From Raja brachyura (taxonomy: Eukaryota), in assembly GCA_963514005.1 (NCBI GenBank), contig OY740807.1, forward strand, positions 29,760,001 through 29,824,000: DNA of 64,000 bases, given 5' to 3'. Of the stretch, positions 7,841 through 62,388 are shown piece by piece (the stretch's first letter is position 1; each line of letters begins with the position of its first letter). The notes below the pieces were generated by a model, which did not search any database, was not told the DNA's origin, and saw only the letters and a list, made by a program, of their open reading frames with translations. A program made the position numbers and the translations under genes.

Positions 7841-8819
7841 CGTAGCCTTGCAGTTGCCGTTTCCAATAAAGCCCGACTCCTTGATATTCAAGTGCTTTAT
7901 TATTGCCGAATCTCTCAGCTTCAACATCCTTGGGGGCACCATTATCTGAACCAGACACAAATTATTGCAATAACAGTTTTGGCTGCTCAAGGGTGTGAGT
8001 AAATGTCTGGTGGGCTGTGGAACAAGGAGCTACAGGTTGGCCAGTGAAATGTTAATGCCTATCCTTCCACAATGTTGCTAAGCCAACCAGACTGTCTGTA
8101 ATGAGTGGATTTGACAGGATTCACCTTTTGCCTTGTCGTTTGATGGAATGTGTTGCAGGGTATTTCTGGCAGAATCAGAAAACCTAGCAGTATAGATAAT
8201 GAGAATGGAGATTTCTCCAGCATTTCTGTCTACCTTCGATTTTTCCAGCATCTGCAGTTCTTTCTTAAACATGTGAATGGAGATGCAGTCTTTGTAAGGA
8301 TAAAAGATGTACAGTCCTAAAGATAAAGCAAGAGATAAACACATCATCAGAAGGGTCCCGGACCCACATGTCATCTGTCCATTCCCTCCATAGGTGCTGT
8401 CTGACTTGTCGAGTGCTTCCAGCACTTTGGTTTGTTTTTTTACCCCATCAAGACTGCTAGTTTATGGAGAATTTTCAGTCCTTTAACCCTATGAATGAAG
8501 ATACAAGGAACTGCAGAGCAAAATATAAAGTGTCTAACCCTGGAATGTAGACGTAGCTAAAACAATATAAAATGAAACTGATGCCAAATGATTTAAAAAA
8601 TACCATGCCCTGTACCTGGGTGATGCCACATGTGGAAGTCCTGATTGAATGGCAAAAATCTGTTTATGAGTTGCCCTGATTTTGTCACAGTCTTCTTCTA
8701 AACCGTTCAGACTCCAGATTGAAAGTAACTTCGAGGATTTGTAGTATTTGGTCACACCCACATATGCTCTGTGATGCCCGGCTGGTCAGCTGATTCTGGA
8801 TGGTTCTCTCTTCTCTTAG

Positions 8820-8957
8820 ATCATAATGGATTCCAACATCACGAAGCAGGCTCTAAATGAGATTGAAACGCGACATCATGAGATCATCAAACTGGAGAAC
8901 TGTATTCGCGAGCTGCACGATATGTTCATGGACATGGCAATGCTGGTGGAAAGCCAG
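8820..8957 (+). CDS. STX1A: Syntaxin-1A exon, N-terminal half of the Qa-SNARE (H3) helix up to the 0-layer Q
   Basis: ttctcttAG / GTAAGA; 138 nt; [46 protein letters not shown]. Confidence 0.97.
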
Positions 8958-10446
8958 GTAAGATGGCGATCAAACAGAGAAAGATCTCATTTTGAATCTG
9001 TGTGACGGGAACTACCAGTTATCTAAACAGAGAAAAGGTCCATCTTACTCTGTCATCGTGGATTGAGCGTGAAACAAAACTTTATGATTCCATGTTATTG
9101 CTGATTTTAACTGCCTTAACAACTTTGATTCACCAAGAATCGTGTGTTGAAGAATTAGCACTTCAGTTTTTGAAGTCTCTGCTCAGTGACCAGTGTTCAA
9201 GCATTCTGCGTGCTGCACGGAAAAAATAATCTCAGTTTAAGAGCATAGCCTATAAAGCAAGAGCATAAGACCAAGAGCAACACCTTAAAGCAAGAGTAGG
9301 CCATAGAGTACTGTGAGTCTGTGCCAATTGTCAATAGGATATGAATTCCACTCACTATCCAAGACTGTTCACTCTCCTATCCAAGCCTATATTCTTTGAT
9401 GCACTTAACATTCAAAAATACACGGAGAGACACCCTTAAATGTAATTTACTGATGTGGAACCCATTGACCATATGTTTAGATTTTAGACTATGCTATAGC
9501 TTCCTTCTGGGTTTCTCTGATAACAACTAATGCCCTCCTAAGTTGCCAATGGCAAGTCTAAGTAGTCTCCTTTTACCAGTACCCCAAGATGACAAGGCTT
9601 AAGGGAACCTGGACTGCATGACTTTATATGCACTGGAAAGGGAGTTTGCCTCGTTGGTCTTGTGAAGCATTGTACACTTGATTTTCAGTGATCAAACCCA
9701 ACTAACCACAGATCCACCACACTAGACTGGGAATTGATTTAGTTCTTCCATCATGGTCTCACCATCAATCCTGCAAACAAGAGATATCACCTGCTTCTCA
9801 AAGCGGTGCAGTAATCTCCCTGTCTCCTAAAATAAGGACAATGGAAGGAATGTGCTATTTAAAATGAGCAGTACCATGTATCTATGCTTCTTCCCATTCG
9901 CAGCCCGCCTCTTCTTCACACCCCTCGTCTCTGATTTGAGGCGCTGTCTTCTTTGTGAAAGTTGCCAATCAACTTCCTGTTTATTGTTTGAGAGGGTCCT
10001 TGGCGGAGGATAGGTGAAGCTCTATAATGCTTCACTCAGAACCAAACGTGCTACCACAAAGCCAAGGGCAGGTCAGCTGATTCCCAGGCAGAATCTTTGC
10101 TTCTGAAAGTGCCCCCAAGACATTCCTGGAGCTGCCTCTGTCCTTGCACTGCCAGACCCTACCATCCCACTTATTTTAGTTGATCACACCATCTAACCAC
10201 TTGCAAAGACTTCTCACTCCAAGTGTCTGCCCCCTTCCTTCCCTTCCCTCGCTTTCTGCCCCCATCTCTGCAACCATTTGTCCAAAGGTTAGAAACAAGG
10301 TATCTGATGTGTGGATCGAAGGGACTGTGACGTATGGAAAATGATATCAAAGCCAAGAAGAGCAAAGATCTAATAAGAGTTGCATTAATTCATAATTCAC
10401 CGTGAGGCTCTGACTGCGAGTCTATTCTTCCTATTGCTGGTAACAG

Positions 10447-10499
10447 CCTCTGTTTTCTCCTGCTGCTAATACCCTGGACTGGACGGTGGAGTCCTGCAG
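10447..10499 (+). other. Candidate 53-nt frameshifting cassette exon in STX1A intron
   Basis: CTCTGAC branch-like motif (10408-10414), pyrimidine tract and taacAG (10446), donor CAG|GTAACA (10500), four GCATG motifs within 70 nt downstream. No transcript evidence. Confidence 0.35.
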
Positions 10500-11034
10500 G
10501 TAACACATTCTGTAGCATGCAGTAACGGTGCAGCTTTGCATGATTGCATGTACTTCCAACCACACGCATGATATTGGACTCTTGAAACGTGGTAAAGCGC
10601 CTAAAGAAAGTCAAAGGTGCAGCAATGTAAGATGTGCTTGGCTTCTCGGCCTATCTTAACACGAACCCCCCCCCCCCGCCCTCTCATCTGTTGGACTGAC
10701 AACTGGGTAAAGATAATCACTCACTGTGGAATATGATGAGTCCAGGGACAAGGTTGAGGAAGCAATCTCACTGCTGCGCTCATTCTCAAGCTACCAGTAG
10801 TCAGAATCTTAGTTGGTGCATGAATAAGAAATAGCCAACATCAGCAAGGGTAATTTAGCCTGCCATTCCACCCTGTCCTCAGTTCACATCAACCCACCAT
10901 GATCTCCAATGCTAAACATTGGACAGGAACCACGCACACAGCGTGCTGAGATCTTATGGAAGCCCGGTGCCGGCTAAAGGGGTAGATTATTCAAGCAGAT
11001 AGCCTCATGTTAGGAACCTTTATCTGCAGGAGAT

Positions 11035-11170
11035 CATAAGATCCTATGTGATAGGAGCAGAATTAGGCCATTTGGCCCATCAAGTCTACTCTGCCATTCG
11101 ATCTTGACTGATCTATCTCTCTCCCATGACCTCATTCTACTGCCTTCACCCCATAACCTCTGACACCCAT
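11035..11170 (-). mobile_element. CR1 LINE 3'-tail fragment
   Basis: ataggagcagaattaggccatttggcccatcaagtctactc...; sister copies at 13740-13875 and 47305-47428. Confidence 0.65.
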
Positions 11171-11922
11171 AGTAACAGATAACAGCAGCATAAAGCTTCA
11201 TTGGTGTTGGTGGTCAGGGCAAAATTGGTATTTTAAATATGTCGGCTGCATTCTAGAAAGGTTTTGGGACACTGGGAGACCGATGGAAAGGTGGAATGTC
11301 AGGAATCAATTCTATTATTCCCAAAGTATTCAGGATGGCACCTCATGGAGGCTGAACAAAACAGCTCTTTGCTCCCTATCCATGAACTTAGCACCTGAGG
11401 AAATTAGGGGGGGTTGGGGGGGGGGAAGAGAGACAAGAAATATTAACAGAGACCTCCGCTTCTCCAGTGAAATTCCCAGAGGAAATTCATTCCAGTTTAA
11501 AATCCCTGAACAGCAAAGATGACAATCTGAAAATGCTCCATTTGGTAAACAAAAAGATTATCTGGAGAATCAATACCAACCCATACCTTGGTTGATTTCA
11601 TCTGGTTTCTATGTGGGAGTTATTGGATGTTCTGATGAGTAAGTCCTTGGGAGAATAGGTGCCTCATTATGTTATAGTGGGATAAGGCTTTAATGCAGTG
11701 TTGGTATTCAAATAAACCATTAGTGGTGCCCACTTCAATAGAGGAATGGCTCTTTGCACCAGAAAAGCATGCAGGGTGGTAGTGTGGGGCCTCTTTGAGG
11801 CTTCGCTTCACTTTGCCCCCCACCCGTCAAGGACAATGCTGCCAGATATAATGCTTGTGATATAATTCCTTGGGATACCAGGGGCTTTTCGGGAAGAGTG
11901 AATCGTTCTCCTTCTGTTTCAG

Positions 11923-12033
11923 GGTGATGTGGTCAACAGCATTGAGAGGAACGTTGTTAATGCAACGGATTACATAGGCGACGCAAAGGACAACACAAAA
12001 AAAGCTGTTAATTTTAAGAGTACAAGCCGGCGG
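11923..12033 (+). CDS. STX1A: Alternative (putatively mutually exclusive) STX1A exon A: second copy of the C-terminal SNARE half, syntaxin-2-like
   Basis: ttctccttctgtttcAG / GTAAGT; 111 nt, phase 0-0, open: GDVVNSIERNVVNATDYIGDAKDNTKKAVNFKSTSRR; 16/37 identical to the canonical exon with all heptad-layer positions kept. Confidence 0.85.
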
Positions 12034-12109
12034 GTAAGTGACTGGTGAGAATGGCTGCTGAAGCACCTCTGTTACTTTCATGCGTCTCTGCTCTTTCCTC
12101 GATGCCCAG

Positions 12110-12220
12110 GGGGAGATGATAGACAGGATCGAATACAACGTCGAGCACTCAGTTGACTACGTAGAGAGGGCAGTGTCTGACACAAAAAAGGCGGTTAAGT
12201 ACCAGAGTAAAGCGCGACGG
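12110..12220 (+). CDS. STX1A: Canonical STX1A exon B, C-terminal half of SNARE helix
   Basis: cccAG / GTGAGT; 111 nt; [37 protein letters not shown]. Confidence 0.98.
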
Positions 12221-12244
12221 GTGAGTAGTGCACGTCGACAAGCC

Positions 12245-12250
12245 TGCATG
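12245..12250 (+). promoter_or_regulatory. RBFOX-type UGCAUG element just downstream of exon B
   Basis: TGCATG 25 nt after the exon B donor; a downstream position is the enhancing one in the RBFOX RNA map. Confidence 0.5.
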
Positions 12251-13173
12251 CGGTGTGGATGATCTCACTGTACGTCCCCAATTCCATCACAAGAGAATGT
12301 ACAAAAAAAATGTTAAGCAACCCTGAATTCATCTCATTGTGCACGTGTGTGTCTACAATTGTCACTCCATCAGTTGGTCGACTTCCCTCCCATCGAGGGG
12401 GCCCCATGCTGTAATAAAATTTATGAGGGTTATATATTCTGCGCACACGACTGGCTTTATGAGTGTCAGTGATAACAATTATAAGGGCCGTACTCTTCAC
12501 ATATTATAATTGGCTCTGGGACTGTGAGTCTTTCACAGAAATGTAACTGCTATCTTCACCTCAGGAAATTTCGACAGTTCAGAAGTGCACACATTGCATT
12601 ATGTTGCTGCACAGTTTTTCACGTATTTAAAAGGTGTAACTCAAACATTTATAAATCAGAAACAAGATATTCTAGAGGCACGTTAAAAATAACGTCCAGG
12701 AGCATGCGATCCCGTGCTGCATATACCTCTCTATAACCTAGGTGTAAACTTAGACCATAATGTACACTATAAATCTTGCAATCACTTTCCCCATCTCATT
12801 GCTGTTGTCTGCCAGGGTGAAACTATGGTTCAGCAATGATTATTTGCCCCACATTGTAAAAAGCAGAATGTCTTTTTGATGAAAGTAGAAGTAAGTGAAT
12901 AAAGTGATCTGACATCTCAAATAGATACATGAAAATTGGGCGATGATGTAAGCTTACCTTTTGTGAATATGTTCATCTATTCACAACATTGCACAGTAAC
13001 ACACTCCGAGGCATAGTTCGTGATGAGTGGTGTGTGATGCAGAGAACACAGGAATTAGCCGATTCTGTGATGTATGTTAAAGAGTCAGGCAACATTTTTG
13101 GTGTGGGACCCTGGGGGAGATGCGTGCACCTCTTAGTATTGACATTTACTACATTCAGTAGGTCTTTCATGCC

Positions 13174-13388
13174 TAGACACAAAATGCTGGAGTTGCTCAG
13201 CAGGACAGGGAACGTCTCTGGAGAGAAGGAATGGGTGACGTTTCGGGTCGAGACCCTTCTTCAGACTGATCTCGACCCGAAACGTCACCCATTCCTTCTC
13301 TCCAGAGATGCTGCCTGTCCCGCTGAGGTACTCCAGCATTTTGTGTCTACCTTCGATTTAAACTAACATCCGCAGTTCTTTCCTACAC
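13174..13388. mobile_element. Penelope terminal-repeat inverted (hairpin) insertion with hammerhead core
   Basis: About 80-bp inverted arms; intact CUGAAGA-A-GGGUCUCGACCC-GAAAC-GUC on the - strand; flanking gtctttcatg duplication. Confidence 0.75.
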
Positions 13389-15949
13389 AGTCTTTCATGT
13401 CCATTGCCTGGCGAGGCCATTTTCATTCATACCTGTGATCACAAAAGCAGCCAATACACCATCTGTCACTTATACAAGCTAATGTAATGTGACATTTTGC
13501 CAGCTCCATGTACAGAGGGATTGGAAGAATTTTGAGGCAGGACTTGCTTACAGTGACTTAACAATCATTCAATGACATGGTGGAGAACAGAGGAGAAACA
13601 AATCAACCATTATTTTCCCCTTGTCATCTATCTTGAGACCTTGCTAATATTAACAGCATCTAATTAAGTGCAATTTATTCCCTGTACATATTCCATAATT
13701 CAACTTATTCTGCTGCAATATGTTTAATATTCAAATAAATCATAAGGTCACTAGTGATAGGAGAAGAATTAGGCCATTCGGCCCATCAAGTCTACTCCGC
13801 CATTCAATCATGACTGATCTATCTCTCCCTCCTAACCCCATTCTCCTGCCTTTTCCCCATAACCCCTGACACCCATCATGCATAAATGATGCATTGCCTG
13901 TTTAAATCTATCTCCAATATAAATCAATGAGTAGGATCTAATCTCAGATGGTGCAATTTGTCCAGGAGTATTTATTTATTTATTGTATCCCTCCCATCGG
14001 GGAATTCAATATGTCCTTGTCAAATCAATACCACTGCAGTGTCTTATAAATAAACCTATCCTGATATAATTCACTCTGTTATAATCTATCTAAATTTAAT
14101 CATTTTGAATAAAATCAATCGAATGTTATTTGCCCAACCGTATATAACAGGTCAGCACAACACAGCTGTCAGCTTCTGTTTTATGTATCACCCATTTTGA
14201 CCAGTTGTCAAGGCCTCATGAAAGGCAAGGTCTCCATCCAACACCAAAAAACCCACATATCTCACTTGTGCCTCGATTAATCTTCCTCTTTGTACCAGAA
14301 TTATTATTTTTTTACTTCCTGCATTATCCCTGCGCAAGAGCTGACTGGTTTATTTTAAAATCTGCTCAATTATGATTGGTTTTGGACTAGGTCACTTAGT
14401 CTGGGCCATTTTTGAAGTTTTACAATCAACAGATAAGAAATATTCATTATGCAGTTGTGGGCAGAAGCAGTCAGTATAATTGAATCATTTTTATTAAAAT
14501 CTGTCCACTATAATCTACCTCAAATCAATCTCAACTCATTTATTCTGCTACTTGATATTAATTCCAGCCCAGCCAATCAAGCTAAAGATTACACTTAGCA
14601 AAATCTACCTCAGTTTTGTCCTCACTTAATTGGCTTTCATACAATCCAATTTATGCCACTAATTTATCATATTTTCATCTATTCCAACGCAATCCGCATA
14701 TCCATAGAGTGTATTTATTATAATTTAATCATTCTGATTCACATACGTCTGTTACAGTAGCATTATTGCCATTTATTCTAATGCAAGCAACCAGGGATAC
14801 ATGTACTTCAAATCGAAATAAGCTATGTTGATAGGTGTGAGTACACCAAATGTCACTGAATGGTAAGAATGCTGTTGAGTCTGATCATTAATTAATCAAT
14901 TGATTCATTAATTAATTAATTGATTCATTAATTGTCGTATGGGGAATGGGTTTGAAACATAAAGAAATGTTAGAAGAGGACAAAGTAGATGGCAGATGCT
15001 GGAATCTGGATTGATAAACGGGACACAAAGAGCCCGGCAGGTCTGGATTTGATGTAGAATCCCAACCCGAGATATTTACTTACCCTCTTGCATCCACGGA
15101 CGTTGCTTGACCCACTGAGTTCTTCCAGTGTTCTGCCTTCTGTTACTAAAAACATGCTAGCTTGTTAATTAACAATTTAAAATAAGCAAATACAATTCAT
15201 AAGCTGTGAGCCTGTTTTAGATTAAAAAACAAATTCTATTGTTTGTTACATATGTTAGAACATAAATTGCTGATCAGTTTGGGTTAGGCAATCAGGCAAC
15301 CATGCCCAAAGTTTAATTTTGGTGGTTCATTGTGCAAACCTGTTTAAATTAAAATCTTCAATGAAGGTCAGTTGGGCAGTAGAACAGGACTTTTATCTCT
15401 TTTTCATCAACTACACCAAGAAATAACTTTAGGGCATTTTTATTAATACAATTTAAAATGGATTTATCATCAGAATAGAGATTTTTAATGTGGGTCCACT
15501 CTGATACAGTCAATAAACATATCTTTTATAACCTTGACTGAATCATTTCATCAGTGTGCGGCCGATAGCTTTGTAGTTAGTTTAATTAAAAATTTGATCT
15601 ATTAAAAATGTAAAAAAATTAGGTTTCTATGAGCATAAATTGAAGTGCCATTCTTAACTAACATAATCTCTGCACTCCTGCTAATCAGCTCTGCTTGCAT
15701 GTATGTGTGTAGGGGTAAGGTGTGATTTTGTGGGTGAATATTGGTGATGGGTGTTCTCTCAAATTAAATCTACTATTTTTAAGTTGGTTTGGAGAAATTC
15801 ACCCAGTTGGGCTGATGAAAATAAGCAGAGAAACTTCTGGTTAATTTTTACAACTATGTCAGGATTAGTCTCTAGGATACAGTAGGTCACAGTGAGAAAT
15901 TATTATTTCCCATAATTGCAGCCTTGATGGAATAGGGTGTCAATATAAA

Positions 15950-17050
15950 GACTCTTAGAGTTGCACAGCATAAAAGTAGGCCCTTCTGCCAAAACATCCA
16001 TGCCAACCATTTAGCGATTTACACTAATCTGACTTTAGGACTGTATCACTCTGTGCTTGCTTATTTAAATTATGTCTAAATGCCTCTTAAATGTATTCAT
16101 TTAATCTGATCCTACCACCTCCTATGGAACATGTTTGAGATATCAATCTCAAAGCTCCATCTTCTCGCCTTAAAATTCATGCTCTACTACGAGAAAAGAT
16201 TGTCCCTCATAATCTCTCTGTGCCTCTGTATCTCTCAGAATCTTATATACTTCTATCAGGTCACCTTTTGGTCTCCTCTGCTCAGGGAAAACAAGCCTGG
16301 TCTATTCACTCTCTCCCCATAACTAATGTCCTCCAATCCTGATGAATCTCCTCTGCACTCTCCAGTGCAATCACATGCTTCCTCAAGTGTGGCAATCTGA
16401 ACTGCTCAAAAATGCTGTCCTTCACGCAGCTTAATCAGTGTTTTGTAAAATTCCCACAAAACACCCAGACTTTTACATTCTATGCCCTGCCACTGAAGCC
16501 TCATGTTCTACACATTATTCACGACCCTACTGATCTGCGTGCCATTTTTGGGGAACTAGGGACTTGGACCCCTAGACCTCTGTTCATCAGTATTTCTTAA
16601 GTCTCCAAACATTTAACCTGCCCCTGCTTGACTTCCCAAAAGTCATTACCTCAAACTTGCTGGGGTTAAATTCCATATGTTAATCCTCTTCCCAACTTTT
16701 CATCTGATTGAAATCATGTTGTAGCCTTAGACTTAGACCACCAATTTTTGTGTCTCCGTAATCCTACTAGTCATCCCTCCAACACAAACACACGCCATTA
16801 ATATATATCACAAACAGCAAAGGTCCCAGCATCGATCCATGCGGTACACCACTGGTCACTGAGTTCCAATCAGAAAAACATCTTTCCACCACCCCCAATT
16901 TGGGATCCAATTAGCCAGCTCACCGTGGATCCCATGTGCATTAACCTTCTGGATTAGCCTACCACATGGGACCTTATCAAATGCCTTACAAAAGTCAATT
17001 TAAACGGCATGTAAAATCCCTGCCTTCATCAATCTCCTTTGTTACCGGCT
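15950..17050 (-). mobile_element. Old CR1 LINE RT and 3' fragment
   Basis: Degenerate AFDKVPCGRL, GVPHGSMLGPLLFVIYIN and KIGG motifs on the - strand, plus tail. Confidence 0.7.
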
Positions 17051-18249
17051 CTGGAAACTCAGAAAACTCTTATGAAATTCTTAAAGATGATTAATTAAAT
17101 GTTTTACCATAATTGGATTTATTAGAATTATTAGAACGACAAACAGTGAATTTTCCTAATTATGCGGTAATACTACGCAGGTCAGAAAGGCATGTTTAAC
17201 ATGACTTGCAATTATTTTAATTATATAAAGGGGATAGTGATGATGGAAAAATAGTCCAGGAGATGTTTGAGCATCTTTAATTCCTATTTATTCCGGGAAA
17301 CGTAAGGGTAATTATAAAGCTTTCTAAAAACATTTAGGGAGAAGTATTACTGGGTAATTTGTGATTAAAACATAATTCCAAGCGAAACCAGGTAAAAATA
17401 GTTGCTGAAAAGAAATGCACAAAAATTTTGAAAAAGGAGAAATACATGCTTATTAAAACAGAAAAATATTAGTGCATCTAAAATGATGGTTGAAACCTGG
17501 ATTTGGCAGTTATGTAATCAATACAAGTCCTTTTACCCTCTGGGAGAGAATAGCTGCAGGCATATAGCACCAGTTGCCAATATTATCACACCACATAACG
17601 TAAACAGAAGCAACTGACTGATAGATCATGTCTGAGGAATTAGACTACCTAGATGGTGCCATAGTGTTAGCAAGTCAACAGCCCACTTCCTCCAAATCCT
17701 ACATCCTATCAGTGACTTCTGCACTGACTGCCAGCATTGGACTTGTATGCTGGCAACATTTCAACCTGACAATCTAACAGCTAAGCAGTTCTGCACAGAT
17801 ACACAAAGCAAGTTACAGGTGCATTGTCCTCTACTACTGGGTTATTTTTGTCCATTTTGACACAATCTCCGTACTATTGTTGAATTGCAGATATTCTAAG
17901 GCTTGATGATTGCTGCTTGAATTCCATGCTTCTTCCAAATGCTGTCTCGAAAGTTTGGCTGCTGTGTGTTAAGACATGTTTTTGATTTGATGCTGTGCCT
18001 ATTTATGACAAACCGAGCCTTAAGATGGACCATGTGCGGAATGAATGGAAAAACTGATTGTCACCGCAATGCCCTGGCAGATATTAGCATGGGGGCAACA
18101 TGCATGTTCTGCTGTGTTGGCTCTGCCACCCACTTGTATAGTCTGGGCAAACCATTAATGCTGGGTGTTGATCTGTGAGAAGCAGATCTCGTGCTTGTAA
18201 TGAAAGCCCTGAAGTCTTGTGTGATGCCTGGCTGCAACTGGTCACTGTG

Positions 18250-18618
18250 TCATAGAGTGATACAGTGTGGAAACAGGCTCTTCGTCTCAACCTGCCCACA
18301 CTGGCCAACATGTCCCAGCTACACTAGTCACGCCTGCCAGCATTTGGTCCATATCCATCCAAACCTGTCATATCCATGTCCATGTCTAACTGTTTCTTAA
18401 ATGTTGGGATAGTCCCTGCCTCAATGCCCTCCTCTGTCAGCTTGTTCCATACTTTCACCACCCTTTGTGTGAAAAAGTTACCCCTCAGATTCCTATTAAA
18501 TATTTTCCCCTTCACCTTAAACCTATGTCCCCTGGTCCTCAATTCACCTTCTCCGGGCATGAGACTCTGTGCATCTACCCGATCTATTCCTCTCATGATC
18601 TTACACATCTTTATAAAG
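18250..18618 (-). mobile_element. CR1 LINE 3' end
   Basis: KIMRGIDRVD...RTRGHRFKVKG..FNRNLRGNFFTQRVVKVWNKL. Confidence 0.85.
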
Positions 18619-19019
18619 TAGCAAGATGGGACTCCCTCCTAACTAAAAGCTACTTTCCCTAACTTGACACCCAAGCGCTCTAGTAGCAGTCTGAATCTTC
18701 ATGCTGAAAGTAAACATCGTAAGACCTCATTCTGGAGGATCTTTATTGGATACATTTCTGAGGTGCTCTGTGGGGATTACAGTGCCCTGAACACACTGCC
18801 ACAGTTCCATCACAGGTACTGCCATGGTTTATCTCATTATTCAATTGGCCATCCAACATTATCCAACCTTGAGCCAAAGATATGTGGGGACATGTTTGGT
18901 GTCCTGTCAAAGGTATGTATTATTCCAGTGTGTAACATATGCCCAGTTGTCAGCCAGAGATATGCATCACAATTTGAATGTTTTATTTGCTACTGCGGTT
19001 TCTTTGTGATGTGCGTATT

Positions 19020-19025
19020 TGCATG
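19020..19025 (+). promoter_or_regulatory. RBFOX-type UGCAUG element upstream of alternative TM exon A
   Basis: TGCATG about 40 nt before the 19063 acceptor and beside the CCTCAC branch candidate (19031-19036); an upstream position is the silencing one. Confidence 0.5.
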
Positions 19026-19062
19026 CCGAGCCTCACCAAATTGTTTTCTTCCCTTCCCACAG

Positions 19063-19140
19063 AAAATGATCTGTATAGGAATATGCATTGCAGTAGTACT
19101 GTTGATTATCATCATTGCTTTGGCTGTGTCCCTCAGTTAA
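19063..19140 (+). CDS. STX1A: Alternative terminal transmembrane exon A of STX1A
   Basis: ttgttttcttcccttcccacAG acceptor, phase 0; KMICIGICIAVVLLIIIIALAVSLS* is a tail-anchor like the syntaxin-2/3/4 C-termini. Confidence 0.85.
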   Translation, partial: KMICIGICIAVVLLIIIIALAVSLS

Positions 19141-19933
19141 TGCTCGAAAGCGCATGACCCACCGAATCATCCTGACTGAGACTAAAGCTGGGCTGTTGTT
19201 CCATGTATGTTTGTGTGAAAAGGAAAGACGACAACTCATCATTCCTGGACACCTCCATTTCATTTTGCCAACACCTAGGATTTTCCTGGAGGGGCTACTT
19301 ACAGGCACCAAGAGCATGATTCAGGTCTGACTTCTCCTCTTCAGTGCGGACCTTGCTTGCTTTGGCATCTCCATAAGCTGAAGAGCAACATCAGGATTCA
19401 AGCTACACTCTTTTATTTATCATTTTGGTTTAACTTAAATGTTTATAATCTTAAAAAGCATTATTGGTTTGCATCTTGCCTTAACAGAGTATGATCCATG
19501 ATTTTACAAACTTATTAGTTCACGATGAATTCAGGTGATGTTCTGCAGCGATTTTTCTATTTTTATAAATAATTTTAAAAGCAATTACTCTCCATTCCGT
19601 TCCTCTCTCTTTCCCATCTTGCTACTTTACCTTTTTTCTATCCAGTCTTTCAGTCTTTCTTTCCACTCTTCTCCCTCTCAACTCCCTCTTTTCTCTTTGT
19701 CAATGTCTCTCTCAAACTAGTCGTCATTCTCTCTGCAAATGGCCAAGCAAATTTTACTAAATGAATGTTGGAATAGAACTCGCCTATTTAGTTCCCAGAG
19801 CTTGTTGTGCCCATTCAGTGACTTAATATATCCACCTCCTGTAACGTAAAATGTAAATGTAACGTAAGATTTCTCAGCCCATCCCGGCTGCTCAAAGTAG
19901 ATAACGAGCATTCGGACGGACGCTGAGAATTTT

Positions 19934-20163
19934 GGCGGCACAGTGGTGCACCTGGTAGACCTGCTGCCTCACAGCGCCAGAGACTTGGGTTCAATCCCAT
20001 CCTTGGGTTCTGTCAGTGTGGAGTTTACACGTTCTCCCTATAACCGTATGGGCTTGGATGAGAAAGAAGGATAACACAAAACTAGTGTGAATGGGTGATC
20101 AATGGTCAGCATGGACTCAGCATGCCAAAGGGCCTGTTTCCATCCTGTGTCCCTAAACTAAAC
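19934..20163 (+). mobile_element. HE1-like tRNA SINE
   Basis: ggcggcacagtggtgca...ggttcaatcc head; gggcctgtttcc...taaactaaac tail. Confidence 0.75.
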
Positions 20164-20366
20164 AAATCACGCAGAAGGTTAACGTAATGAGCAGAAGGAG
20201 CTCATTGCTTCACACCCCACATACCTGACCACCCCACTAGCCACACTTGCCCAATGTAGGTCTTACATTGGCCTTATCAGCCACCTCAGAACCAGAAAGA
20301 AAACAACTCATCCGAAATCCTGTCTAAAACAAAGTTCCCTTATTCCCATTGTTATTCCCATTGTTA

Positions 20367-20734
20367 TCTCTATATAACTAAAAGTCTTTGTCTTGTTTGT
20401 GCCCACGATGTGTCTCTGTATGTGTCAATCTGGTTAATTCCTATCATCTTCTAAACGCTAGGCCACAGCCTTCCCATTTTTACAAATCCTACTCATATTT
20501 TTCCCATGGTGGCGATAAATATCTTCCCGTCGCATTTCCATTTATATTTCTGGTTATCAATCGTTTAAATTTTAAAAACAGCCCGATTTCTTCAACTCAC
20601 CCATTTTGGGAAAAAAAATCCGAGTGGCGTCACAATGCACTCTCAAGGCAGGTCGGGCCACTCTGGGAGGGAGGGACACTCCCGCGCTCCAAACCCCCCC
20701 ACTCCCCCTCCCAACGGTTCTGCAATTGGTCTAG
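20367..20734 (+). mobile_element. Non-autonomous Helitron
   Basis: 5' TCTCTATATAACTAAAA, 3' ccaa...ttgg hairpin then CTAG; inserted at A|T with no TSD. Confidence 0.7.
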
Positions 20735-22529
20735 TTCCCAATAAAAATCTATCAACCTCATAATCTGAATTTAACAGTTCCAGACTGACTAATTTATGAG
20801 TACAAGTGTTCATTCCTCACTTCAATGTTTAGACTGCCATTTCATCTTAAACTCTTAAATCAGTGAAAATAGTTTATCTTTATCTGGTTTATGTTCCCTT
20901 TATTATCTTGAAATCTTGTCAGATAACCCGTTAACCTTGTAAATTGCATGAAATCCGGCCTTCGCATAATTTTTCTTTGTTATGTAATCCTTAAGATTCA
21001 GTTGAATTTCAGAATTAAGATATTATTGCGATAAATCTGCTTTACCCTGTCTAAGGCCAAAATATCCATCCCAACTTGTAGCACACAGACTGCACCCAGT
21101 GCTCCAGTCATGCTCCAATCACGACTTGTAGCAGAATTTCTCAATTTCTTTTAATTTTATTTCTCAATATAAAATCCAGTATTTTATATAAAATCTCAGT
21201 ATAAAATCAAGTATTATATTTGCCCTATTATTTCCAGTATCTGTCTCTGATACTTTATCCAGCCCTCTTTGGATCTCCATTGTTTCTGGTTTAACACCAT
21301 TTGGAAGGTATTCTTTCACATCAGTCCTGTTTTGTGCATTTACCTAATCCATTAGCTCCTTATAAATTAATGCTCTTGTCTATAATGCTTTCGGTTTTGC
21401 CATGTCAGGCAAATTAAATATGTGTTTTCTATCGTGTCATCCAAGTACAACTGATCTTTGCAACCCCAACGCTAATCTTAGTTTTGCTGCCAATTTGAAC
21501 ACCCACCCTTAACTCTATTGCCCGTTTGCTGCCACAGTCAAATCTTAAATCGCTAATTCTTCTTCTATTCCACGAGCTGCCAATTTAGCTAATGGTCCCT
21601 CTGTAAAATACCTCTGGATGTCCATAGAAATAAAGGTTTTGGGCATTCCCTGTTGGCCATTTTAGGTATCTCTTCAGAATATAACTTGACCTCAGGTCTG
21701 TTGCAAACACTATGCTTAGGCCCGAACTGCTGACTTTTACTCCTAAGTTTTGGAGGTTGTAAGATTCCCGGGCAATTGTGAAGGTCTCCAACTTGCTCAG
21801 CGAGCTCTGCCAGCAGTTTCCCAACTGTTCCTTATGGAATCTGGTGGTGATCCATGAACTTGCAGAAGTCCCCAGTAGTTGTGTTGGGAAACCTCTTCAC
21901 TGAACCTGCACCAGGCCCCTTTCACCTGAGTAGAGAGGAACGACCATGAGAGAGAGAAGAGCAAGGTAATTCATATTCGATTGGATAAATAAGTTTGCTC
22001 TAATATTTTTAAATTATTTTAAATAGGTTTTTAATTCTTTATTATTAATTTATTTTTACGATATGTTGTTTTATTCATTTTTAATTGTTTTTGGATGTTC
22101 CTATAATGCCAGTGATATTCAGAATTCTTGACAGCTGGTAAAGCTTGAGATGTAGCTTTACTGTTTGTCAGATTTTTCTTTCAGTTGTTTTGTGTATTGG
22201 GCTTGTTCTAGTCCACCAGATGCCACCATTGCATAACACGACCATGTCACCGTGTAGCATCTCTCCCTTTTAGAATAGGATGGGACTGTACAAAATATTG
22301 ACACTGGAGGATCAGCAAAAGATAAATGAATGGTTAGCACATATGTTATTGCTGAAGAAGGGCAGCCTTCCACTACCAGGAAGTTACAGCCTTCTGTTGC
22401 CAAACATGATCCATTGCAAATATCTACAGAACGGAGGTATACACCAATCCATGGGTCCTCATTTAAAAAAATGCTTTTATTAGATGCAAATTATCTGACG
22501 CACATATCAAAGCAAATTGGCCCTAAAAA

Positions 22530-22860
22530 ATAGAACATAGAACAGTACAGCACTGGAACAGCCCCTTCGGACCACAATGTATATACTGAAGATGATGCCA
22601 AGGCCAACTCTTATCTCCCTGCATATCCATGTGCCTTGTCAAAAGCCTCTTAAATGCCACTATGCGGCTTCTGACACCACCACGACCATCAGCAGAGGTT
22701 TCAGGCACTCACCACCCTCTGTGTAAAAGCTTGCCCCACACATCTTTAAATTTTGCCCCTCTCACCTTAAAGCTATGCCCTCTAGCACTTGATATTTCCC
22801 TTGTGGGAAAAAAAGCTCTGACTGTCTGACCCATCTATGCCTTTCATAATTTAATATGCT
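22530..22860 (-). mobile_element. CR1 LINE 3' fragment
   Basis: ctctcaccttaaagctatgccctct and agaacatagaacagtacagcac tail motifs. Confidence 0.7.
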
Positions 22861-25282
22861 TTGTCAGGTACTAACCTCCCAACTTGATCAACTCCCCAGG
22901 AAACTGTACAAACATCACAGTGAATGAATCCACAGGCATTCCTTTTCAAAGTTTCATGTAGCATGAGTATCATAAGTTACAATGGGAAATTCTTGCCAAA
23001 TTCCTGTGAAAATCCCATTAAACCCATAAAAAATAAAAAATAAATTAAAGAGCAGGAAAATAAATCACAAATCCATGTGAATTTTGGAAATAATCAAACA
23101 TGCAGATACATGTAAAGAAACACATATAAAAACATTTTCATGTACAGATGCGGGAACGAGTGTGGATATTGCCATATATGAATTTGCAGTCATGAACAGT
23201 TCTATAGGAAAAAATATAGATCTAATTTTATGACACTGACAAATGTCAACACAATAGGCCCTGCATAAAAAGAAAACATTCTAACTTTTCCTTAATTTTG
23301 GTAGTAATCTTACATTTGTATTTTCTGGACAGATAATAAAGAAAGATACCTCCTTGGATCAAAAAAATGCCTATCAGACTTCCTAGAATCTTATAAAGTA
23401 GCAAAAGTATTACTTTTTCTCTAGTCTCACCATCACTAAAGCCTCGTACTCCACCAGAAATCCACTGAAATGTTATGCACTATGTATTAAGTTCTTACCA
23501 AAATTGTACTGACCAAATTTGGGATCATATTCTAAATGCAGTTTAACCAATGGCTTGAACAGATGTAGTAATATCTGGTTGTTGAACATGTTTTGTTCCA
23601 CACTTTTTTTAACTTGGCCCTTCCAGTTTAAAAAAAATCATTAATTGCAGTTTATTGTTCCATTCTATCAGCTTGTTTCTCACCATACTAAAGGAAAATG
23701 ATAAATTGTCAACATTTCTTTTATCACATATTATATATGGGCATATGTAACACTGACAACAATTCTCGTAAATGAAATAATGACAAAAGCAAAATAATAA
23801 AAATACAAATAATTCGTTGATCTCAAAGAAATTATCAACTGTGATACAAACTACTGAAGTGCTGTTATTTAACCCCCAAAAAAAGTGAAGCTGCCTAAAT
23901 AATAATAGACTCCACGGAAAAACATAAATACACTATGCAATAAAAGTAACACGATTTCTCCCCAAAAGCAAAGGAGCCTTATTGCCGTGGGAGAAATGTA
24001 TTGTGTTACAGCATGGGCCCTCTCCCGTGTCCCCACTACTCCTAATGAATGTGTGACTGGAACAGTATTATCCAGCTGTAAAACGACAGCACTATGTAAT
24101 ACATGTGGATAGTGCCATCGTTTTACAGGTGTTTTGTACCTTCCTAGATTTTACTCAGTTCTTCTTGTATCAGCATTACATTCCTCACTTTCTCTTCGTC
24201 CATTTCTGAAGATGTGGCTTGCTGTTTTGCATGATTGTAGATTTTAATGGCTGCTCTGCTGTTAAAACTTTTACAACCCTTTCACAAGGTGTGTGTAAGG
24301 TGAAGAGTGAGAGACTGTAAGGGAAGCAGTTGAGCTGCTATAACAAACTGACAGAAGTTGGAGAAGCTGATGATTCCATTGGCCACAAGGAATAGAAGAT
24401 AGTTTAGGTCTATATTATAGTCTAGATCTTAACAGACATCTCAACAGGGAATCTAAAATGTGTCCCTATGCAGTTCAATGCCTGATGATGGTAAGTGAAT
24501 TGACAATAAATAACATTCTTACATGCGGACATGCACTTTACACCTCTTTGTGCACACACTTGCAATCACACCCCTCTCTTAAAATTGTATTATCAACTCA
24601 GAATTGAACCAAATTAGATTTTGAATACTCGTCTTTCTCCCAAAATCTGCTCCTTTTGCAAAGCTTTTCAATTACTGTAAATACAAATTTGACAGCAAAA
24701 AGTAGATTAGGGTAAGATGCCAGTCAGAAACTTATTAACTCAATTCAATAATGTGTAAACATTTTACATTGGGATTAAAGGTCAAAAGAAGACATCATAC
24801 TTTCTACCTCCCCAGCTGTTTCCAGCTACAAAAAATGTCATGAGCGAGTGTTTATTGTCACCAAATTGTTAAGAAGAGAGATTTAAAATATGAAGTGGGA
24901 GCATTGTTGTTGTATGGTTGCATCTAATGTGAGCAGTTGTCTAATGTGAGGATGGCTTCTTAATATGATGGAGTGTGGTGATGGAATATGTGGTGTCCTA
25001 TTTATACCAAGAGATGTGTGGTGTGCGAGAGGTTTGAAATGTGAGGGACTTATGTTTCAAGGTAGGTTCTGAAATGTTAATGGTTTGTTAAAATGAAGAG
25101 CCTGCAACAAGAAGATATCAATAAGAACATTTACTGATGTAAAGGGAAGGTTATAATCTGTTTTGGAATTGCTTCATCTTCCATTCTGTAAAGACTCTGA
25201 ATCATTTAAATGTAAATAAAGTTACAGAACTAACACTTTCTCCTCTTCTTCCTGTCATGCTGCTTGGATTTGGGGGCTACAG

Positions 25283-25363
25283 AAGAAGATAATGATTATT
25301 ATATGCTGTGTGGTGCTGGGGGTCGTCATTGCCTCCACAGTTGGGGGAGTGTTTGGATTTTGA
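25283..25363 (+). CDS. STX1A: Canonical terminal transmembrane exon B of STX1A
   Basis: ctacAG acceptor; KKIMIIICCVVLGVVIASTVGGVFGF*, matching the syntaxin-1 TM with its CC doublet. Confidence 0.97.
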   Translation, partial: KKIMIIICCVVLGVVIASTVGGVFGF

Positions 25364-26273
25364 GAAACACAAAATAGGAAAGAATCTACCAATGTGATGT
25401 GGGCTTTTCAGCCACTTTGTGGGATGAAGTGACTTTCACTCGGTATCACTGAGAAAAGTTCCTCTGCATGACTATCTAGCATTAATTCCTTTACTGGTCC
25501 TGCTCTTTCTGGCTGTTAAGGTATGGTAACATTTTTTTTCCTCTTTTTTCTTTTTCAATGATGCTCTGTTTGCCATAAACACAAGAAAATTTGGCCCTGG
25601 GAAAAACAAAACTCTTCACATTTAAAGGGATTGATCTTAACCCATTTGATTGCCAAAGCCAAAGAAAGCCCAGTAAACACCAACAGACACAACGGCTGGA
25701 GTCGACATTTTGTAAGATACTGATCACAAAATGGCAATATCTTTTTTTAAAAAACTCAATTAGTCCCTAAGAGCTTTCAAATCTTGTCAAGGTTGGAAGA
25801 ATGCAGTGATCGACATCTCATCAGCACAATGGTATCCACTGGACTAGGCGGCCGGTCATTATCCCAACTGCAAGTGTTCTGTGGAAATTCTATTTCTTCA
25901 CAATAACACTACCATTGATGGCGAAATGATATGGTCCAAGAATGTTCTGCTCTAAATATAAGACTCCGTGTTTGCTACTGTGGGTGAGGAGCTGCCAGGC
26001 AGTCTTTGAAGTTTCTCTTTTGATCTCAGCCTTACTCCTTTGCTAATAACAGTTTTTTATTCGCTGTCATTTCTTCATGTGAAGAAGACTTGCTGATGAA
26101 GATTCTCAAGTGGTGCTATCGCTCCCCGCAATGTTAGAGAAAAGGCTGACAAGATCTGAAGAGTACCTTTAAAGGATTCAGCTTTTTTTTTCTTTTTTCT
26201 TTAAAGTGAAATGAGGTTGGAACTTTTCAAAATGTTATCATTTTTTAAATTTTATTTTGGATTACTAAAACAA

Positions 26274-61086: not shown

Positions 61087-61543
61087 TTATGGATTTTTTA
61101 TACAAATTGCATCTAATGCATTCTTCGCATCATCGATCTGCTGCTGCAACCTCTCGCGCATTGCATCTGTTGTTGCTTTCCTTAATCTGCCTTCCATTTC
61201 TTCAATTACTGCACGGTAACCCACCACATTGTGGAATACCCGAACAGCACGATCGCCACTGGAAACTAAGAACCTACTGTTGATGTCAAAAGCCAAGCCA
61301 GCAATGTCCTCACCGTGCACATTTAGAAATTCTTCCTCCTGCCTGCCTGTCTTGGTGTTGTGCATCGTGATGTTGAAGCCATTGGAAATAGCTACCACCC
61401 TGGCATCAGGAGAAAGAGCGATTCGGCAAGAATCAGAAACATCGCACTTCATAGTTAACAACAAGTATGGATCTTGCTGCTGTTTGTACTGAACATCGGT
61501 GTCCCACAGCTTCCAGGTGCCATCTTTTGAAATTGTTGCCATT
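61087..61543 (-). CDS. TBL2: Transducin beta-like 2 (WD40 protein), last coding exon
   Basis: Acceptor tttcctggatAG|A ATG; (R)MATISKDGTWKLWDTDVQYKQQQDPYLL...CRIALSPDARVVA...VHGEDIAGLAFDINSRFLVSSGDRAVRVFHN...RERLQQQ* matches the TBL2 C-terminus. The previous exon is not seen in the window. Confidence 0.95.
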
Positions 61544-62388
61544 CTATCCAGGAAACAAATAATGATATATTTTTGAAATGACCATCGTCTGTATTTTTGT
61601 TAAAACAATATTTTAGACCAGAATCCATAACATTAGCATAACATTCAGACCAATCACTAATTTCTTTTTTTAATCATTCTTGCCCATAAATTAATAATTT
61701 ACTCAATTAATCCAAATTACCAGCTAAAATTGTGACATTTTTTGCTCTTGGCACTGTAATAATCTTGCTCGAAAAACCAAATGCAATCAACAAGTGGAAG
61801 CAGCCAAATGAAATGACACACTTAATAGTCACACCTAATATTAGTTCACATTTATCTTTTGAAACCATATGACATTTTTGTATGCTAGGCGAATTCTCTT
61901 GTCTAAAGCACGATAAAACATATTTAAGAGTCGTTTCTCCTTTGGATTTTTCGTCAGACATCTTAATGTATGCCCTCTGGTTTTCAAATCTACTACCGAT
62001 GAGAACAGTTGCCTTTTGTTTACTCCAATGGATCCTTGAAGAATGTGAATGCTCTACGAAATTTTCTCTCAACCCATTCTTTTCCAAAGTGAACACCACC
62101 AGCTTCTCCAGATTACCCATTAAATAAAGCCCCTCTTCTCTGGAACCACTCGTGAATTGCTTCTGCACCCCAAAACCTTCACACTCGCTCCAAAGAGAAG
62201 TATTGAGAAATGGAAACAAAATTCTAGCTGTGGATTGCACGTTTTACAAAAATTCAATACAACGTCACTGCATATAGTGCCCTCCATAATGTCTGGGACA
62301 AAGACCCATCATTTATTTATTTGCATCTGTACTCCACAATTTGAGATTTGTAATATAAATAATTACATGTGGTTAAAGAGCACATTGT

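Follow-up and report, generated by a model that had tools for sequence, protein, structure and literature searches.

A tandem exon pair in a skate STX1A gene suggests a probable second form of the protein in fishes, similar to syntaxin-2

Among the described syntaxin genes, the one closest to the locus presented here is human STX3, in which, according to the accessible part of the source, a 111-nt exon A, a short intron, a 111-nt exon B and two terminal transmembrane exons, TM-A and TM-B, follow one another in the same order as in our sequence (PMC8373072). The B form of mammalian STX3 is STX1-like, as is exon B here, and STX3A is described as widespread and STX3B as retinal (PMC11476516). The transmembrane exons of human STX2 are also swapped (PMC8373072, accessible part), and at the position of the A/B pair STX2 has a single exon, which is of the A type. 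Other genes, namely those of SNAP-25a/b and OGDH 4a/4b, likewise contain exons that were duplicated in tandem long ago and are used in a mutually exclusive way (PMC2581893, PMC7969005). A further point of reference is artificial: the STX1A-2(Cter) chimera, in which Q226-255 of STX1A is replaced by the STX2 counterpart, a stretch that approximates the extent of exon A; four point changes tested in that work, D231N, Y235R, E238V and V248K, correspond to exon A residues (PMC10957171).

The locus lies in a stretch of 64,000 nt of the skate Raja brachyura (assembly GCA_963514005.1, contig OY740807.1, positions 29,760,001 to 29,824,000, forward strand), the whole of which is called the window. The gene is STX1A, given that the matching Narcine STX1A-like protein falls among STX1A rows and outside the STX1B clade in a tree of the shared part. 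The features discussed below are the following:

8820..8957, plus strand: upstream exon with AG/GT ends, 46/46 identity with the Narcine STX1A-like protein P0003
11923..12033, plus strand: exon A, 32/37 identity with Narcine RefSeq isoforms X1 and X4, clustering with STX2 and STX3A exons
12034..12109, plus strand: the 76-nt intron between A and B, a candidate too-short spacer for splicing of A to B
12110..12220, plus strand: exon B, the canonical neuronal exon of the STX1A/1B/3B type, 37/37 identity with most vertebrate STX1A rows
19063..19140, plus strand: TM-A, the alternative terminal transmembrane exon (coding part and stop), 81% identity in a tblastn match with the C-terminus of Narcine X4
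25283..25363, plus strand: TM-B, the canonical terminal transmembrane exon (coding part and stop), scoring 107 with STX1B and 85 with STX3B

Exons A and B are both 111 nt long, in phase 0, free of stops, flanked by AG and GT and spaced by 76 nt, and they share 16 of 37 residues and 66 of 111 nucleotides. The sequence confirms what the original prediction had claimed about the length, phase and identity of the two tandem exons; the residues that it assigned to layers +1 to +8 in each exon are as listed, and the replacement of D231 by N and of E238 by V in exon A is found in the translation. Chance similarity between the exons is ruled out by the scores of 127,774 six-frame windows, among which A against B reaches 85 (BLOSUM62) and the runner-up, excluding B, 23. 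The SNARE exon is not repeated a third time between 8957 and 26000, where the next best score is 26. A rough weight matrix gives donor scores of 10.5 for A and 9.7 for B, and the PDB matches of exon A are mostly syntaxin-1A chains. As for the terminal exons, a scan for hydrophobic candidates yielded 19063 as the sole addition to the canonical one, TM-B itself being missed by the scan.

That this is the cassette of STX3A/3B, as had been proposed, is upheld by the exon order, which matches the human STX3 coordinates in the accessible part of the source, although the intron measures 76 nt here and 119 nt in human STX3 (PMC8373072). The host also differs, being STX1A with B as its canonical exon, and TM-A is nearer to the transmembrane exon of STX2 (score 57) than to that of STX3A (38) or to TM-B (23). 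The affinities of the terminal exons thus agree in part with the grouping of the SNARE exons, TM-B going with STX1B and STX3B and TM-A with STX2. The STX2-like gene of the same genome (G000:C212) has a single exon at this position, A-type and 62% identical to exon A, and lacks a B exon, whereas in the window exon A is attached to the N-terminal part of STX1A.

Exon A is by no means confined to this animal. It is joined to TM-A in Narcine RefSeq isoforms X1 and X4, it occurs in RefSeq models of Carcharodon, two Chiloscyllium, Stegostoma and Cetorhinus and in a GenBank model of Scyliorhinus, and database models also place it in coelacanth, sturgeons, eels, tarpon and arowana, as well as in carps, catfishes, pike, salmonids and percomorphs. 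A wider count was made on 212 STX1A rows, obtained from a full-length search (best 120 of 3874 matches) and from cluster look-ups, after exclusion of two window peptides, two STX1B rows, one mite row and one unnamed row; the rows are isoforms and not species, and they include no lamprey, hagfish, chimaera, gar, lungfish or zebrafish. In a pattern-based count among the matches listed, exon A is present in 72 of 142 fish rows; neither exon A nor TM-A appears in any of the 70 tetrapod rows among those matches. A short exon-A query gave 1 protein among 9 candidates, and a second search 3 among 24.

This spread rules out a skate-specific duplication or a dead pseudo-exon. The check for exon A in relatives, suggested beforehand, is answered by the shark, coelacanth and other fish models, and the idea that a two-module gene had been kept by this particular lineage proves too narrow, since the exon is annotated in sharks, rays, coelacanth, sturgeon and teleosts. 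Exon A appears to have been lost in land vertebrates, a direction that follows from its presence in cartilaginous fishes, ray-finned fishes and coelacanth. The tetrapod absence rests on 70 rows, given that the best 120 of 3874 matches were listed, and since A and B isoforms can fall in one 90% cluster, a tetrapod A isoform hidden inside such a cluster is possible. Some rows are peculiar in other ways. Three eel and mormyrid models (P0022, P0061, P0094) fuse the start of exon A to the end of exon B, which may reflect either faulty annotation or a genuine switch within the exon, and in some carps (P0114, P0115, P0122, P0164, P0168) exon B, near-invariant elsewhere, has diverged at about 10 residues.

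The constraint on exon A is specific to the part of the helix that faces inwards. Over 48 distinct exon-A peptides, which are not phylogenetically independent, the mean entropy is 0.55 at the layers and 1.44 at the other positions (p=0.0014), and length and frame are preserved in all of them; the view that exon A is real and conserved is supported by these values. Among the differences listed between the window and organism A, in exon A and the coding part of TM-A, 3 of 3 are synonymous. Exon A nevertheless evolves far faster than B (48 vs 10 distinct peptides). Its residues in the window are N231, S232, R235, V238, K248, D249 and T260, and the changes of the outer face across exon A are D231N, R232S/N, Y235R, E238V, V248K and K260T.

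How the two exons are used can be approached through gene models and, to a lesser degree, contigs. RefSeq isoforms of relatives carry A or B. Among the matches listed for the 142 fish rows, where pairings come mostly from predicted gene models, A alone is followed by TM-A in 42 and B alone by TM-B in 40; A and B stand in tandem in 13, and crossed pairings amount to 14 for B with TM-A and 4 for A with TM-B. The tandem and crossed rows imply that both the exclusion between A and B and the coupling to the terminal exons may be loose. Both exons preserve the frame, so that decay would be unable to police double inclusion. A steric basis for exclusion is suggested by the intron between them, in which the branch-point-like adenines all lie at or before +47 from the donor of A. 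In OGDH the mutually exclusive exons 4a and 4b have branch points less than ~50 nt from the donor, which is the steric threshold according to the accessible part of the source (PMC7969005); a branch point within that distance of A's donor in the 76-nt intron would exclude A and B from one another in the same manner, the branch point of the skate gene being predicted from the positions of adenines.

The contigs come from organism A, from one study with three samples whose status as RNA is a guess, and they represent 4 of 12 runs over the repeat-rich region 8700-25700. Counted inclusively, and among the joints listed, contig ends fall at 11920 and 19062 (starts) and at 12135 (end), and two runs each include a contig with 114 extra letters before 25282. 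These positions match the 3, 4, 1 and 1 nt that the upstream exon or exon B shares at its end with the introns. These ends offer a weak hint, fitting splicing of the upstream exon into A and into B, use of the TM-A acceptor and splicing of B to TM-B. No direct junction of A to TM-A was seen among the joints listed in the 4 of 12 runs.

Such observations also bear on the proposal that exon A is real and yet largely unproductive or regulatory, giving a truncated soluble product or lowering STX1A output under relaxed selection. Read-through past the donor of A meets a stop after 4 codons; no shark row with exon A alone is joined to a transmembrane exon, and most stop a few residues later; exon A is followed by the unspliced 76-nt intron in one contig of organism A; and layers +7/+8 are altered in some teleost exon A peptides. 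We regard this proposal as improbable, considering the layer-specific constraint and the preserved length and frame in the 48 peptides, together with the 42 rows, among the matches listed, that link A to a conserved TM-A.

The origin of the pair was addressed with two kinds of trees. The shared part (39 rows, 197 N-terminal columns) gives ((STX1A,STX1B),(STX2,STX3)) with starred branches. The exon-only tree groups STX1A-A with STX2, STX3A and row P0319, against all B exons and the invertebrates; the A module receives 91/95 (37 columns, 53 rows) and, under a mixture model after removal of 14 long or divergent rows, 94/92 (37 columns), neither being starred. The labels of the paralogues in rows P0219-P0365 derive from the shared-part tree or from matches to human STX2 and STX3 exons and are otherwise provisional. 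Residue 232 is N or S in 14/14 STX1A-A, 8/8 STX2 and 7/7 STX3A rows and R or K in 12/12 vertebrate B rows; among invertebrate rows it is R in 7/9 and S in 2/9.

The kinship of exon A with STX2 that had been read from the peptide is recovered in both exon trees with these unstarred supports, and an STX1-only clade is rejected by the AU test with the full set (p=4.9e-5) and without the 14 rows (p=2.6e-4). From the module grouping and this rejection it is likely, as far as the sequences tell, that the pair arose before the split between STX1 and STX2/3 and that differential loss followed, which lends support to the differential exon loss originally envisaged among syntaxins 1, 2 and 3. A single duplication would have preceded the split of STX1A/1B from STX2/3; afterwards STX3 and fish STX1A would have retained both exons, STX2 exon A, and STX1B and tetrapod STX1A exon B.

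It could instead be argued that exon A is an independent duplication within STX1A that came to resemble STX2 by drift, convergence or gene conversion, the cassette of STX3 having a separate origin. The alignment is short, the A exons are fast and long-branched, and on average exon A matches STX3A at 15.2/37 residues, which does not exceed its match with STX1A-B (16.2/37). The AU test leaves an STX3-only clade unrejected (p=0.109 with the full set, 0.083 without the 14 rows), and duplication can recur, as indicated by the second exon at the same site in arthropod-like Syx1, which groups elsewhere. This scenario is nonetheless hard to reconcile with the rejection of the STX1-only clade in both sets, with the exon order and short intron shared with STX3 and with the N/S232 common to both, and we judge it quite unlikely.

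An older date must also be weighed, in which the pair of SNARE exons is pre-vertebrate (bilaterian) and homologous to the alternative exon of arthropods. The accessible part of one study dates the STX2 and STX3 exon events to Bilateria, citing Daphnia, but that date may derive from the transmembrane exons (PMC8373072). The invertebrate-like row P0273 has a TM-A-like tail, and P0319, a syntaxin outside vertebrate STX1/2/3 whose nearest Atlas cluster is mostly Chordata, has an A-type exon and likewise a TM-A-like tail. The arthropod-like syntaxin-1 rows P0301 and P0259 do possess a second exon at the same site, apparently unrelated to vertebrate exon A: both alternative exons retain R232 and fall outside the vertebrate A clade, and that of P0301 comes after the canonical exon, not before it. 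A bilaterian pair seems to us unlikely.

Whole-genome searches of the assembly found no intact STX1B or STX3, which could reflect real loss or absent sequence. A lone STX3-like exon lies at C2:39217480-39217605, and the 60 kb around it contain no further syntaxin exon. Two syntaxin exon-like pieces at C1439:10881-21286, one with an in-frame stop, are presumably STX4-like and possibly a pseudogene. Intronless syntaxin genes (L003; L015 on C13; L018 on C8; L019 on C12) are present as well, all of them, we assume, STX11/STX19-like, and the alignment of the second C13 copy shows a stop and gaps. Within the window, a WD40-like coding stretch on the minus strand at ~61500-61650 is probably TBL2, a gene that in humans lies near STX1A, in the Williams-Beuren region.

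What the A form might do can be predicted from mouse neurons, as reported in the available portions of the papers. STX1A carrying Q226-255 of STX2 retains evoked release, with smaller EPSCs, 0.2 vs 0.5 nC in the primed pool, a release probability raised by 42% and an 8-fold spontaneous rate, priming stability and clamping being lost (PMC10957171). Introduced singly, D231N, Y235R, E238V and V248K leave EPSC amplitude unaltered, and the rise in spontaneous frequency is not significant for E238V and V248K (PMC10957171). In the triple mutant D231N/E234Q/E238Q evoked release is normal, and priming and clamping are impaired (PMC11213007). The natural isoform differs from the chimera in having S232 and D249 instead of N and E, in a changed linker and likely in its transmembrane exon.

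As the inward layers are kept, zippering with SNAP-25/23 and VAMP would still be expected, and the altered outer face would weaken priming and clamping by synaptotagmin-1 and Munc18, and would suit a readier secretion of the STX2 kind, most likely away from fast synapses. By analogy with the chimera and the triple mutant, we predict a leaky or loosely clamped isoform rather than one blind to Ca2+; the idea that exon A renders the protein Ca2+-insensitive is rejected on the mouse data (PMC10957171, PMC11213007). The original contrast between a Ca2+-triggered and a constitutive isoform is too simple, given that the chimera and the triple mutant retain evoked release. By analogy with STX3A/3B, exon A would be expected to be used mainly outside fast synapses. 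Loss of palmitoylation reduces spontaneous fusion, according to the part of the source available (PMC9183232), and K260T together with shifted cysteines in the transmembrane exon may alter palmitoylation, possibly offsetting the unclamping.

This type of cassette is already known from STX3, and the exon A isoform is already present in automated annotation (RefSeq). The earlier proviso that the isoform might have been described holds in so far as it is annotated as RefSeq isoforms; searches of the open literature found no account of such a second SNARE exon for the STX1A of fishes. The gene is mentioned 0 times in the text and supplement of PMC8373072, in the text and one supplement of PMC9741552 and in two supplements of PMC4494069, as far as the accessible part of the last goes. 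As regards the proposed origin of the paralogues, the great age of the STX2 and STX3 exon swaps is in print (PMC8373072), and no exon-loss account of STX1/STX2 was found in the open literature.

Taken jointly, the reading that fish STX1A contains mutually exclusive ancient exons A and B, and that its A form is STX2-like with weaker priming and clamping, appears to us probable, and on these models the STX1A of fishes likely exists in a second form that resembles syntaxin-2. A broader proposal, which we put forward tentatively and with more doubt than belief, is that a single ancestral gene for the plasma-membrane syntaxin of vertebrates could switch by splicing between a clamped neuronal helix and an STX2-type helix that fuses easily, that genome duplications followed by exon loss divided the isoforms among paralogues, and that fish STX1A retains the switch, possibly in neurons as a natural dial of spontaneous release and release probability. 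On the same proposal, exon A of STX1A may also replace a lost paralogue in this species, in whose assembly intact STX3 and STX1B were not found.

If the reading is correct, it would bear on a known imbalance between paralogues, since between STX1A and STX2 the likeness of the SNARE helix falls from 81% in its first half to 60% in its second (PMC10957171): the difference would be explained if an exon duplicated earlier had left one copy in STX1A and the other in STX2, as is likely. The likeness of STX3B to STX1 would then be a matter of shared descent, and the loss of exon A would be dated to the line leading to tetrapods. Fishes would appear to produce naturally the chimera that synaptic physiologists have engineered, and the role of splicing in clamping and priming would be testable directly in carp-family or other laboratory fish.
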